Of a stretch of 53,963 nucleotides of DNA, positions 8,251 through 50,768 are shown in pieces. The notes beneath the pieces were generated by a model. That model ran no database searches. It saw only the letters and a list, made by a program, of their open reading frames with translations, and was not told the origin of the DNA. Position 1 is the first letter of the stretch. The number at the start of each line of letters is the position of its first letter. Source of the DNA: Candidatus Falkowbacteria bacterium (GTDB lineage: Bacteria > Patescibacteriota > Patescibacteriia > Patescibacteriales > GWE2-39-37); contig JBAXJQ010000005.1 in the NCBI GenBank assembly GCA_037137775.1, positions 1 to 53,963 on the forward strand, in the 5' to 3' direction. A program made the position numbers and the translations under genes.

Positions 8251-8324
8251 TGGACCCAACTGGAGTCGAACCAGCGACCTCTTGCATGCCATGCAAGCGC
8301 TCTAACCAACTGAGCTATGGGCCC
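8251..8324 (-). tRNA. tRNA-Ala(GGC)
   Basis: GGGCCCATAGCTCAG...CTTGC-ATGGCAT-GCAAG...GTTCGACTC...TGGGTCCA; G3:U70 pair; CCA not encoded. Confidence 0.96.
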
Positions 8325-8351
8325 AAATTTTATTTAATATTAGCCAAAATG

Positions 8352-8423
8352 TGCCCCCGGGCGGAATCGAACCACCATCAAGACGTTAGGAGTGTCTCGT
8401 TTTATCCATTAAACTACGGGGAC
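8352..8423 (-). tRNA. tRNA-Arg(CCT)
   Basis: GTCCCCGTAGTTTAATGGATAAAAC...loop CTCCTAA...GGTTCGATTCC...GGGGGCA; CCA not encoded. Confidence 0.93.
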
Positions 8424-41701: not shown

Positions 41702-41936
41702 AAAACAACTACACCCCTGGCGGAGTGTAGTTGTTTTGTGCGCCCAGTAGGATTTGAAGGGGCGGAAGCCCCGTCATGATAAAATAATGATGTTAAGCTT
41801 TTAAACAAATAATTCAATATTTATTGCCTTTATTTTTAATTTACGATTTATTTGTAGCTTCGCAAGCTACTACACACACAAAACAACTACACCCCTGGCG
41901 GAGTGTAGTTGTTTTGTGCGCCCAGTAGGATTTGAA
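41702..41936. repeat. 57-bp exact direct repeat (tRNA-Lys 3' 20 nt plus terminator), period 178 bp
   Basis: AAAACAACTACACCCCTGGCGGAGTGTAGTTGTTTTGTGCGCCCAGTAGGATTTGAA at 41702-41758 and 41880-41936. Confidence 0.95.
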
Positions 41937-41989
41937 CCTACGACCGTTTGCTTAAGAGGCAACTGCTCTACCGGCTGAGCTATGGGCGC
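41917..41989 (-). tRNA. tRNA-Lys(CTT)
   Basis: GCGCCCATAGCTCAGCCGGTAGAGC...loop CTCTTAA...GGTTCAAATCC...TGGGCGCA; CCA not encoded. Confidence 0.95.
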
Positions 41990-42007
41990 AAAATTATATA
42001 ATTTTTG

Positions 42008-42081
42008 TGGCTGGGGAGAGACTCGAACTCTCGACCTCGGCGTTATGAGTGCCGCGCTCTAACCAGCTGAGCTACCCAGCC
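42008..42081 (-). tRNA. tRNA with CAT anticodon, probably elongator Met (Ile2 not excluded)
   Basis: GGCTGGGTAGCTCAGCTGGTTAGAGC...loop CTCATAA...GTTCGAGTC...CCAGCCA; 1:72 paired, so not initiator. Confidence 0.9.
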
Positions 42082-45563: not shown

Positions 45564-45638
45564 TGGTGCTCCCGTCAGGACTCGAACCCAAAATTCTTGG
45601 TCCGAAGCCAAGCGTGATATCCGTTTCACTACGGGAGC
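45564..45638 (-). tRNA. tRNA-Arg(TCG)
   Basis: GCTCCCGTAGTGAAACGGATATCAC-G-CTTGG-CTTCGGA-CCAAG...GGTTCGAGTCC...CGGGAGCACCA; CCA encoded. Confidence 0.93.
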
Positions 45639-47251: not shown

Positions 47252-47533
47252 TTATTTGCCCTTAAGCGCATCTTTAAGAGTTTTTCCAGTTTTAAACTTG
47301 GCAACAATTACTTGTGGGATTTGAATGCGTTCATTTGGCTTTTGTGGGTTAACACCGCCACGGGCATGTCTGGTTTTTGCCATGAAAGTACCAAAACCGG
47401 TAATCGTTACCTCGTTACCAGCTTTGAGTTCAGCAACGATAATATCGACTAATTTTTCCAGCATGTCGGTCGCTTGTTTTTTGGAAACAGTTGCCTCGGT
47501 AGCAATGCGATCGATTAGAGCCGCTTTATTCAT
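47252..47533 (-). CDS. hup: DNA-binding protein HU
   Basis: MNKAALI-IA, V-ITGFGTF, R-AR-G-NP, FK-GK-LKDA. Confidence 0.95.
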   Translation of the reverse strand: MNKAALIDRIATEATVSKKQATDMLEKLVDIIVAELKAGNEVTITGFGTFMAKTRHARGGVNPQKPNERIQIPQVIVAKFKTGKTLKDALKGK

Positions 47534-47552: not shown

Positions 47553-48368
47553 TTATTTAATATTAGTATATTCGATTATTGGCTCAATGGCAACAGTTTT
47601 GGCAGTTTTTGTGTTTACTGTTAGAAAAACACCATTCAATTGACTTTTTCCAGATTCTGGCACCCGTCGAACTTGTTTTATTTGTGTAATTAGGGTTTTT
47701 GTTGCTCCAGAAATGTCTAAGCCAATGCTATGATCTGTAATCCCCACCATGCCAACATCTGTAATCGAACCCGTACCCTTTTTAGAAATTAAAGCATCTG
47801 CCGTCATAATGTGGGTATGTGTGCCTAGCACAGCAGATACTCGACCATCCAGATAATGTTTCAAGCAAGATTTTTCAGCTGTGGTTTCTGCATGGATATC
47901 TACAAGTATAGCAGAAAAATTTTTATTGGCAAAGTCATTGTTGGCTAATATTTGGTCAGCTTTACGGAACGGACAATCGTATTGCATTGGCATGAAAACT
48001 CGACCCAACAAAGCAAAGAGTAGTACATCACCTTTTTTGGTAGGGATTATGGCAAACTCTTTTCCTGGGAGCATTGGTGGAAAGTTAGCAGGTCGTACAA
48101 TTGGCAATTCAGAATACACTGTTTTAGCCTGCTCTAAACGATCAAAAGCGTGATCACCGGCAGTAAAATAATCAATACCATAGCTTTGAAGTTCGGCAAT
48201 AGTAGCGTTGGTAACTCCGCTACCATGTGCAGAATTTTCAGCATTAGCGATAACTAGGTCAGGCTTGAGTTTTTTAATTAACCTGGGTAAAAGATTTTTA
48301 ATCGTTTTACGGCCAACGGAGCCATAAATATCACCTAAAAACAAGATGGTAAGATTATTAGCGGGCAT
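47553..48368 (-). CDS. ymdB: YmdB-family metallophosphoesterase
   Basis: LGDIYG-GR, NAENSAHG-G, RPAN, DIHAETTAEK, GTHTH, TDVGM; follows rny. Confidence 0.9.
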   Translation of the reverse strand: MPANNLTILFLGDIYGSVGRKTIKNLLPRLIKKLKPDLVIANAENSAHGSGVTNATIAELQSYGIDYFTAGDHAFDRLEQAKTVYSELPIVRPANFPPMLPGKEFAIIPTKKGDVLLFALLGRVFMPMQYDCPFRKADQILANNDFANKNFSAILVDIHAETTAEKSCLKHYLDGRVSAVLGTHTHIMTADALISKKGTGSITDVGMVGITDHSIGLDISGATKTLITQIKQVRRVPESGKSQLNGVFLTVNTKTAKTVAIEPIIEYTNIK

Positions 48369-49887
48369 ATTCAATAACTCTCATTTCACGAATAACATTA
48401 ACTTTTATTTCACCAGGATATTTTAGTTCGGCTTCAATTTTTTTAGCAACATCACGAGCTAGCTGATAAGCGCCAAGGTCGTCCATCATATCTGCTTCAG
48501 CAAAAACACGAACTTCTCGTCCGGCTTGAATTGCATATGCTTTTTCTACGCCTTCAAATGAAGTGGCAATTTTTTCCAATTCTTCAAGTCGATAAATATA
48601 TTGCTCAAAAGAATCATGACGTGCACCAGGTCGAGCAGCAGAGATGGCATCAGCCACCTTAACAATAACGGATATTAGCCCGCGTGGGCGATCATCATGA
48701 TGGGTTTCGATTGGGGCAATGATTTCATCGGGTAAATTAAACTTTCTTGCAATATTACCACCAATTTCTGGATGGGTACCCTGGACTTCGTGATCTACGG
48801 CTTTGCCGATATCGTGCAGTAAACCGCCTTTTTTAGCTAGAGTAACATCGGCGCCAAGCTCTTCGGCTAATAAGCCAGATAAATGAGCAACCTCAATACT
48901 ATGACGCAAAGCGTTTTGGCCATAACTAGTACGATATTTAAGGCGACCAATAATTTGGACCAGTTTCGGGTCAAAGCCTGTTACACCTAATTCATACATG
49001 GATTCTTCGCCAGCTTTTTTAATATCAACCGCCAAGTCCTTTTTAGCCTGCTCAATAGCATCTTCAATTTTGGTTGGGTGGATGCGTCCATCAAGGATTA
49101 ATTTATCCAATGCTCGTTTGGCAATATGGCGGCGAATTGGTGAAAAGCCGGAAATGGTGATTACATTTGGGGTGTCATCTACCACAATCTCGGTGCCGGT
49201 TAATTGTTCAATAACTTTAATATTACGTCCTTCACGCCCTATAATTCTGCCTTTCATTTCGTCGCTGGGTAAATCAACAGTGGTGGTGGTGATTTCAGCA
49301 GTATAGGTTGAGGCTAGTCGTTGCATGGTGCTAGCCATCATGTCACGAGATTTTTCTTCTAATGATTCAACTGATTCTTTTTCTAATTTATTAATGCGAG
49401 ACATTAGGTCGTCTTTGATTTGAGCCTCGACATTATTAAGCAATACCTGTTTAGCTTCGTCTTTGGTCATTTGAGCAACTTTTTCCAATTTAGCCAGTTG
49501 TTCGTCCTTGATCAGTTTAATTTTTTCTTTGATTTCTTCAACTTTATTAACTTTGTCATAAAGCTGCTGTTGCTTGTCTTGTAATTCAAGCAGCTTTTGG
49601 GAAAAGACGGTTTCCCTTTTTTCCATACGATTTTGAAGCTCATTTATTTCTTTGCGACGACGGGAGTCTTCTTGCTTGGCTTCGTCAATAATCTTTAAGG
49701 CTTTGTTTTGGGCCTCTAGTAGGAGCTCGCTTTGTTTGTTTTTGGCTTCAGAGATTATTTTTTCTGCCTTACTTTCGGCGTTCTTAGTTTTTCGGTCCGC
49801 CTGCATTTTGCGCATTGAGTAACCAATGGCTAGGCCAATAACTGAAAAAACCAAGCCCACTGCAATGGTGAGTAGGTTCATAGACAT
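48358..49887 (-). CDS. rny: Ribonuclease Y
   Basis: N-terminal TM, coiled coil, KGRIIGREGRNI (KH), HDIGK (HD), ADAISAARPGAR, YAIQAGRE. Confidence 0.98.
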   Translation of the reverse strand: MSMNLLTIAVGLVFSVIGLAIGYSMRKMQADRKTKNAESKAEKIISEAKNKQSELLLEAQNKALKIIDEAKQEDSRRRKEINELQNRMEKRETVFSQKLLELQDKQQQLYDKVNKVEEIKEKIKLIKDEQLAKLEKVAQMTKDEAKQVLLNNVEAQIKDDLMSRINKLEKESVESLEEKSRDMMASTMQRLASTYTAEITTTTVDLPSDEMKGRIIGREGRNIKVIEQLTGTEIVVDDTPNVITISGFSPIRRHIAKRALDKLILDGRIHPTKIEDAIEQAKKDLAVDIKKAGEESMYELGVTGFDPKLVQIIGRLKYRTSYGQNALRHSIEVAHLSGLLAEELGADVTLAKKGGLLHDIGKAVDHEVQGTHPEIGGNIARKFNLPDEIIAPIETHHDDRPRGLISVIVKVADAISAARPGARHDSFEQYIYRLEELEKIATSFEGVEKAYAIQAGREVRVFAEADMMDDLGAYQLARDVAKKIEAELKYPGEIKVNVIREMRVIEYAR

Positions 49888-49895
49888 GTATTAAA

Positions 49896-50053
49896 GTTGT
49901 TCGAGTGAGTTTACGACAAAAACCACGGCAGTAACTGTGCCGGTAGAATAATTTGAGATGCGTTTTTTTTGATGAGAATGGTAGAATTCACAAATTTTCC
50001 CTAATGTTAATATAAACTAACAGTTGGTGGCTTGCGTAACGTTCAAGAACAAC
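49896..50053 (-). ncRNA. Structured RNA upstream of rny, candidate 6S RNA or rny leader
   Basis: Hand-folded closing stem GTTGTTC/GAACAAC-TGA/TCA-TTACG/CGTAA-CAAG/TTTG-ACCA/TGGT, central bubble, apical stem; upstream promoter TTGCCA(50122)-17-TAATTT with extended TG. Confidence 0.55.
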
Positions 50054-50132
50054 GATGTTTCAAAATTGTTAAATAATTGGTAGTTACAAAATTAAATTAC
50101 CATAATGAGTCTAATTTGGCAAGAGCAGTGGT

Positions 50133-50169
50133 CTAAAAAAACAGCGGATAAATTCCGCTGTTTTTTTAG
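50133..50169 (-). terminator. Intrinsic terminator of clpP
   Basis: CTAAAAAAACAGCGGA-N5-TCCGCTGTTTTTTTAG. Confidence 0.85.
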
Positions 50170-50186: not shown

Positions 50187-50768
50187 TTACTGAGCTTTTA
50201 TAATTTTATCAATTAAACCATATTTTTTTGCTTCTTCTGGAGTCATAAAATTATCACGCTCGGTGTCCTTTTCTATGGTGGTTACTTTTTGGCCAGTATG
50301 AAATGCTAAAATATTGTTTAATTTGTCTTTGGTTTTAAGAATATGCTCAGCCATAATTTTTATTTCTGTGGCTTGTCCCTCAGCGCCACCCATAACTTGA
50401 TGAATCATAATTTCACTATTAGGCAGGGCCAACCGTTTACTCTTGGCACCTGAGGCGAGTAAAAACGCGCCCATACTGGCAGCCATGCCTAAACAAATTG
50501 TAGAAACATCAGCCTTGATATATTGCATGGTGTCATAAATGGCCAAGCCAGCCGTAACCGACCCGCCAGGACTGTTAATATAAAACTTTATATCTTTATC
50601 TCGGTTTTCAGCATCTAAAAAAAGTAATTGGGCAATAACAATATTAGCAACGTGGTCGGTTAATGGTTCACCTAAAAAAATAATACGTTCTTTAAGTAAA
50701 CGTGAATATATATCATACGCTCGCTCACCGTAAGATGATTTTTCAATAACAGTTGGGATTAATGGCAT
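50187..50768 (-). CDS. clpP: Clp protease proteolytic subunit
   Basis: [38 protein letters not shown]. Confidence 0.98.

Follow-up and report, generated by a model that had tools for sequence, protein, structure and literature searches.

What is the structured element that lies directly upstream of rny, the gene for RNase Y, in a Candidatus Falkowbacteria genome of 1.2 Mb, and does it act as an RNA in its own right or on the gene that follows it? An earlier note on this DNA had read a 158-nt minus-strand segment as a probable 6S-like RNA, with an rny leader as the alternative. We analyzed the whole stretch of 53,963 nucleotides (the window) together with the rny loci of relatives, and the sequence comparisons indicate that the element is very probably a cis-acting, structured 5′ leader of the rny operon mRNA that contains a translated upstream open reading frame (uORF). 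The features of the locus, with the basis of each assignment, are as follows.

50187 to 50768, minus strand: clpP, the upstream neighbor, outside the element (TIGR00493 over the cut-off).
50135 to 50167, minus strand: intrinsic terminator-like hairpin after clpP, with a GC stem (50160-50142) and A7 and T7 flanks (sequence).
50094 to 50122, minus strand: predicted sigma-70-type promoter, −35 at 50122-50117, TG at 50102-50101, −10 at 50099-50094 (sequence and pattern in relatives).
50054 to 50087, minus strand: 5′ tail of the leader, A/U-rich and mainly unpaired; its length is about 34 nt in this genome, against a median of 24 nt in relatives.
50027 to 50053, minus strand: predicted 5′ arm of the closing stem P1 (folding; covariation).
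50005 to 50022, minus strand: predicted hairpin P2, the ‘5′ bubble strand’ of the earlier note (folding).
49944 to 50003, minus strand: predicted apical stem P3, 50003-49988 with 49958-49944 (folding).
49911 to 49991, minus strand: putative uORF of 26 codons with a GTG start and a TAA stop within the 3′ arm of P1 (alignment with a conserved start column; initiation-context score 3.3).
49914 to 49943, minus strand: predicted hairpin P4, with its core at 49942-49926 and a U-rich tract downstream at 49922-49914; it resembles a terminator or a pause site (terminator scan, folding).
49896 to 49926, minus strand: predicted 3′ arm of P1, with no U-tract after it (folding, sequence).
48358 to 49881, minus strand: rny, encoding RNase Y (TIGR03319 over the cut-off, E 6.7e-187).
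47553 to 48374, minus strand: TIGR00282-like metallophosphoesterase gene, overlapping the rny stop (E 1.1e-69, just under the cut-off).
47252 to 47533, minus strand: gene for an HU/IHF-family DNA-binding protein (list of open reading frames and profile match).

The predicted fold of the 158-nt segment (50053-49896) agrees with the earlier note's hand drawing in its bulged closing stem, its apical stem and a hairpin on the 3′ side. At −32.5 kcal/mol (z −2.22) it is modestly better than shuffles, of which 6 of 200 equal it, and all the motifs quoted in the note were found in place. The opposite strand folds less convincingly (z −1.11, 30 of 200 shuffles as good). One part of the drawing did not hold: the AT-rich 5′ strand of the proposed central bubble is predicted to be closed, as a 7-bp hairpin (50022-50016/50011-50005) with pair probabilities of 0.8-0.9, and the modeled center is therefore a four-way junction of P1, P2, P3 and P4. 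The apical arm P3 comprises only about 12 bp in the model; its 5′ arm contains the start codon of the uORF, and its 29-nt loop consists of uORF sequence. P1 is weaker here than in most of the relatives: its duplex z is −1.67, and 3 of 60 shuffles do equally well.

In the order to which the genome belongs, rny was located in 39 of 41 genomes of one set and in 207 of 221 genomes of a second, with 59 matches of the second set unused. Among the matches listed, 155 loci had enough upstream DNA, and removal of one duplicate left 154 leaders, comprising 149 loci (148 genomes, 24 families) and five metagenome contigs; loci with short upstream DNA (L004, L019, L025, L070, L073, L077, L154 and L172) were excluded, as were repeat fetches. 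In 115 of the 154 leaders, the last 35 nt upstream of the rny start pair with the distal 5′ part of the region better than shuffles do (z < −2), compared with 9 of 242 control regions, which were upstream regions of the window’s own genome. The distance of P1 to rny is fixed: the stem ends 9-14 nt before the start, its last pair falls at −9 to −12 (interquartile range of the 115 leaders), and for 37 picked leaders the last G-C pair falls at −8 to −16. Covariation is found within groups: 93.9% of the cells are paired in nine leaders of f3, with two-sided changes at 4 of 11 pairs, and 92% in ten leaders of g16, with two-sided changes at 9 of 25 pairs (0 of 500 shuffles). Across 27 diverse leaders 74.5% are paired, compared with 41-52% in slid registers, although these leaders were picked for clear stems and the figure is biased upward. 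RNAalifold gave no consensus structure for 11 leaders of genus g34, even though single-sequence folds and duplex tests show P1; the failure is probably one of alignment register. The earlier note had staked a structured element on conserved or covarying structure upstream of rny in relatives, and P1 proves to be both.

A DNA profile of the leader gave 48 matches, the 27 training rows included, and four more in repeat or new rny loci. All of these are at leader positions, with none elsewhere in the loci examined, and in the own genome the profile matches only itself. The gene 5′ of the leader differs among loci; the C-terminus of ClpP was recognized by eye in at least 17 of 58, and other genes precede the leader in many others. 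The fixed distance to rny, the varying upstream gene and the leader-only profile matches all support the alternative of the earlier note, an rny leader. Both rny copies of genome G064 (L061 and L098, on contigs C38 and C60) carry the full leader with a 34-codon uORF, reflecting either duplication or contamination of the bin. Outside the order, similar stems were found in 14 of 40 further families of the same class and in 5 of 20 genomes elsewhere in the phylum. At three loci of the same class (L208, L209 and L212), clpP is followed almost directly by a promoter-like site and then rny, with no closed leader: the leader can be missing where rny is retained.

Two short motifs recur in these leaders. 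CCUCC is the most enriched 5-mer, present in 27 of 83 genus representatives (4.6 expected); in relatives it lies in the 3′ arm of P1, partly unpaired (for example L014:3024-3040 and L020:3021-3037), and it is absent in the window. We take it to resemble an anti-Shine-Dalgarno (anti-SD) sequence, in a lineage that hardly uses SD motifs. The motif UUAGC, in an A/U-rich context, occurs in 40 of 83 representatives (leaders of g34, f3, f20 and f17), 4-9 nt before a GTG in some lineages and within the uORF in g34, and is possibly a nuclease or protein site.

On the minus strand of the window the order is clpP, leader region, rny, the TIGR00282-like phosphoesterase gene and the HU-family gene. The phosphoesterase, presumably of the YmdB type, is likely co-transcribed with rny, and the HU/IHF-family gene likely comes third in the operon. 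The sole Rfam matches over the cut-off in the window are five tRNA genes on the minus strand (8251-8423, 41917-42081 and 45567-45638). The clpP terminator, by which the element was said to be insulated, is visible in the sequence, although the terminator scan did not list it; with its A7 and T7 flanks it could work on both strands. A promoter of the element’s own had also been claimed. The site, with a 17-nt spacer and a TG-extended −10 (50102-50094), falls below the threshold of the promoter scan, yet it matches a pattern at the same position in 135 of the 155 loci (median −35 at −266), 130 of the 135 with TG, which the scoring favored. Transcription would then start near 50087. The stem does end 8 nt before an ATG at 49887, as had been noted, but rny more likely starts at another ATG, 49881, where the initiation-context score is higher (0.95 vs −0.16). 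In the own genome only 37 of 632 starts have an SD-like motif, and starts without one are characterized by A at −6 and T at −1. The 3′ end of the 16S rRNA was not found in the assembly, and Rho had no match over the cut-off in the own genome.

The uORF was missed by the earlier note. Of the 154 leaders, 114 were sorted into 30 groups according to genus or family (three groups by eye) and aligned; the remaining 40 fell in no group. A conserved start column is found in 20 of the 30 alignable groups and is absent in 10. Among 23 such columns, 21 open 14-34 codons in every member and the other two open 5 codons, while among control columns (eight control triplet sets) every frame reaches at least 14 codons in 42 of 166. 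The start codon is ATG in 12 of 12 leaders of genus g34 and GTG in 14 of 14 of the f3 core, and the two exchange at one column in groups g79 and f20. Taking the first or longer column in groups with two, we obtained 80 main frames (42 GTG, 38 ATG). Frame 0 is open in all 80, the +1 frame in 26 and the +2 frame in 21; other ATG or GTG triplets in the same leaders open a frame in 24 of 98 cases. The starts resemble the SD-independent starts of the genome, with T at −1 in 48 of 80 (vs 23 of 112) and A at −6 in 60 of 80 (vs 41 of 112). The median initiation score is positive in only 10 of the 20 groups, and a blind, leave-family-out motif scan, which drifted and merged two motifs and is weak evidence, hit GTG in only 37 of 154 leaders. 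A frame of 12-40 codons is present in 33 of 40 class loci and 14 of 20 phylum loci, counts that were made with no control and are not taken as evidence.

From these comparisons, the uORF is likely translated. Its coding sequence has no synonymous or third-position excess (synonymous fraction 0.226 vs 0.286 expected), with rny as a positive control (706 synonymous vs 229 non-synonymous changes), and selection at the level of the peptide was rejected on this ground. Frameshifts between genera g7 and g41 leave the stop codon in the same hairpin, and across the groups we found no conserved regulatory codons or arrest motif of the kind that marks amino-acid or arrest-peptide attenuators. Translation that is indifferent to sequence would make the ribosome, not the peptide, the signal.

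How might ribosomes on the uORF affect rny? A conserved short open frame, as expected of an attenuator, is present in the leader, and we tentatively propose a weak, ribosome-gated attenuator at P4, a model to which we give a little less than even weight. A ribosome following closely behind RNA polymerase would enter P4 and block a weak terminator, so that transcription would continue into rny. Active translation of the uORF would thus yield more RNase Y. Stalled translation would end the transcript as a leader of about 170 nt and lower RNase Y, with the consequence that messengers would last longer. Both the translation of the uORF and the termination at P4 are inferred steps, as is the direction of the effect. 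Once transcription has passed P4, the pairing of P1 would seal the leader, with only the final 9-14 nt ahead of the rny start remaining unpaired.

P4 of the window is the site that the scan flagged as terminator-like. A hairpin of −3 kcal/mol or lower with at least 5 T in the next 10 nt is found in 49 of 154 leaders, compared with 39 of 770 shuffles, and P4 is weak, with a median of −4.75 kcal/mol, a median of 5 T in 10 nt and a tract that is often interrupted. The uORF stop codon lies between 15 nt before and 3 nt after the hairpin in a group-weighted fraction of 0.57, compared with 0.43 when permuted (p 0.009, among kin that are not independent), and the positions of stop and hairpin show a correlation (Spearman 0.47, p 0.037) that is modest and again involves non-independent kin. 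Among the strong terminators of the own genome, 64 of 77 start more than 12 nt after stop codons, as would be expected if ribosomes interfere with termination. The lack of a Rho match over the cut-off in that genome also speaks for attenuation. In Escherichia coli, a nearby ribosome represses an intrinsic terminator (PMC4824070), and pyrBI makes use of such repression (PMC5021804). The former adds that terminators located within a frame's first 100 nt frequently evade repression unless ribosome and polymerase are coupled through a pause (PMC4824070); no pause site was identified in the leader. We favor the weak attenuator because the hairpin with its U-rich tract is more general than the other mechanisms considered and modestly follows the stop codon, and because the positions of the strong terminators fit ribosome interference as measured in E. 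coli. It does not explain why P1, the best-conserved part, is retained.

Retention of P1 is accounted for by the main rival, a feedback on stability, which we consider possible though on balance unlikely, and which can coexist with attenuation. RNase Y, together with RNase J and perhaps also RNase III acting on P1, would limit its own mRNA by way of the leader as substrate; ribosomes on the uORF would shield or expose the cut sites, and P1 would mark or block the path to the rny start. As in an autoregulatory 5′ UTR of RNase Y, a long A/U-rich leader lies directly before rny. In Bacillus subtilis, RNase Y cleaves its own 164-nt 5′ UTR, chiefly among the first 50 nt, which are A/U-rich, and RNase J1 trims that UTR to about −15 (PMC10303841). 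Here the 5′ tail is A/U-rich and predicted to be unpaired, P1 ends at about −15, and RNase J and RNase III are encoded near each other on contig C19 of the own genome. Cleavage sites of RNase Y require a nucleotide upstream and a hairpin downstream (PMC11321564). On the other hand, feedback needs neither the enriched hairpin with its U-rich tract nor the link of that hairpin to the stop codon, and no uORF is mentioned for B. subtilis rny in the accessible text (PMC10303841).

Alternatively, P1 could hinder initiation at rny until a ribosome ending the uORF melts it. This form of translational coupling would suit the window, where the stop codon lies in the 3′ arm of P1 and, with a modeled ribosome footprint there, opening of the rny start region costs 3.8 kcal/mol in place of 9.3, as well as genus g13, where the modeled cost falls from 13.9 to 5.4 kcal/mol. 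A gain of at least 1 kcal/mol is obtained in only 14 of the 80 leaders, however (median 13.8 to 13.4), which argues that melting of P1 is not the shared mechanism, and the uORF stops are spread over 29-119 nt before the rny start, in all three frames. We regard coupling as improbable. A general stem between the pre-start and stop regions, also considered, is supported in g16 but in only 4 of 20 groups, and was rejected as a general feature.

The reading that the earlier note had put first, a 6S-like RNA, found no support: the Rfam 6S search had no match in the region at E ≤ 10. It also found none in the own genome at E ≤ 10, none in 41 genomes of the order at E ≤ 1 and none in the leader loci of 20 relatives. 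Rfam matches below the cut-off in the region and the leader loci, mainly on the clpP terminator, were treated as chance. The 6S-Flavo model (RF01685) gave none of five over the cut-off and one weak match elsewhere in the own genome (G000:C19:3027-3133, L260, E 0.53), which is probably chance, yet is the only 6S-family signal of the genome. By Rfam models, these genomes thus seem to lack a detected 6S RNA. The earlier note places ssrS, the gene for 6S RNA, upstream of rny in several phyla, as a review reportedly does. Our search, which took in 20 of the 22 rny loci found, gave no 6S match over the cut-off in up to 1.5 kb of DNA upstream of 16 rny loci outside the Patescibacteria, and a match elsewhere in the genome in 5 of 10 of those non-Patescibacteria genomes.

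A 6S RNA is described as rod-shaped, about 200 nt long and open in a central bubble (PMC10578484, PMC3847290); it binds RNA polymerase in a sigma-dependent way and templates pRNA synthesis (PMC10578484). The leader has the closing stem that pairs the ends; a model match, a conserved size of about 200 nt and an open central bubble were not found. The closed length is 158 nt in the window and 109-257 nt over 115 leaders (median 200), with only 32 of the 115 within 170-200 nt. None of the 115 has a U-tract after P1 (at least 6 T in the next 8 nt), and none is predicted to form an unbranched fold with a two-sided bubble, a partial discrimination, as control 6S RNAs also branch. The modeled axis has 35 bp and a 29-nt loop, compared with 45-68 bp and end loops of 4-6 nt in five control 6S RNAs from other phyla. 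Two of the five controls fold with a small 3′ hairpin like P4 at a two-branch junction, and the resemblance noted earlier is therefore real but partial. Closed frames of at least 14 codons also occur in three of the five.

We conclude that the 158-nt element probably does not represent a 6S RNA. It is very improbable that a 6S-like RNA, highly diverged and cut from the rny co-transcript, binds sigma-70 holoenzyme, with the uORF incidental or a second function. Such an RNA would fit the paired ends, the median closed length, the shared 3′ hairpin and a slot left empty by the lack of a 6S RNA detected anywhere in these genomes. The own genome encodes six proteins with sigma-70 region 2 (one primary and five short sigma-70-family proteins). 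6S sequences are poorly conserved and Rfam calls tentative (PMC10578484), and E. coli 6S RNA is processed from a dicistronic transcript (PMC7641849). A diverged 6S-like RNA is opposed by the lack of a model match, the range of lengths, the short apical arm and axis, the predicted pairing of the 5′ central strand, the conserved open frame that crosses the center, and the finding that the element never occurs away from rny in the loci examined. That the uORF peptide itself is a functional product or an arrest peptide is least credible of all: local motifs recur within lineages (K-L-A-K-K in g34, K-I-N-K in f20), but no motif is common to the groups, the composition is that of A/T-rich codons, and the peptide shows the substitution pattern and tolerance of frameshifts described above.

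Judged by its conservation, the leader is real, extends across an order of ultra-small bacteria, and is very probably a new form of regulatory leader with a uORF. It is absent from Rfam 15, and the literature searched, with subscription journals mostly outside, showed neither a 6S RNA nor an rny leader described for Patescibacteria. RNase Y is the main RNA-cutting enzyme and sets the lifetime of bulk mRNA, and gene control in Patescibacteria is little known; the uORF would let ribosome traffic set the amount of this enzyme. We speculate, with reserve, that Patescibacteria tie the supply of RNase Y to translation: the closed leader with its sequence-indifferent mini-gene might sense ribosome traffic and lower RNase Y under slow translation, such as during dormancy away from the host, and a stable RNA closed by P1 might be released from it to take the 6S role, a scenario that we consider unlikely as a whole. 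The leader offers a testable link between translation and mRNA decay and a set of SD-independent uORF starts. It also cautions that end-paired RNAs before rny need not be 6S RNAs.

Among known systems, 6S RNA (SsrS, RF00013; 6S-Flavo, RF01685) shares with the leader the paired ends, a size that is often about 200 nt and a small 3′ hairpin at a junction. Unlike 6S RNA, the leader has no model match, varies in length, lacks the open central bubble, the long apical rod and a terminator, carries a conserved uORF and is tied to rny. In the autoregulation of RNase E, the 5′ UTR of E. coli rne acts by binding of a stem-loop, and we know of no uORF in it. It is likewise a structured leader, and the gene it precedes encodes the main decay endonuclease (PMC10303841), but the enzyme belongs to a different family, and the leader described here has no Rfam match.

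The B. subtilis rny 5′ UTR is similar in its length (164 nt, compared with about 200-270 nt here), in a 5′ part that is A/U-rich, in a boundary near −15 relative to the start codon and in the presence of RNase J (PMC10303841). It differs in having a strong SD motif, which is missing here, and a demonstrated autoregulation, while the end-to-end closing stem and the uORF of our leader are not mentioned in the accessible part of that report (PMC10303841). B. subtilis rny mRNA is also reported to be bound to RNA polymerase, a link of interest here (PMC11077062). The closest parallel to the proposed attenuator is the pyrL leader of E. coli pyrBI, where a short leader frame likewise overlaps or abuts a hairpin with a U-tract and a close ribosome prevents termination (PMC4824070, PMC5021804). 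In contrast to pyrBI, the gene downstream encodes an RNase and is not a biosynthetic operon, the candidate terminator is weak and no pause site is identified, and the unit would begin translation at an SD-independent start and is enclosed as a whole by a long closing stem.
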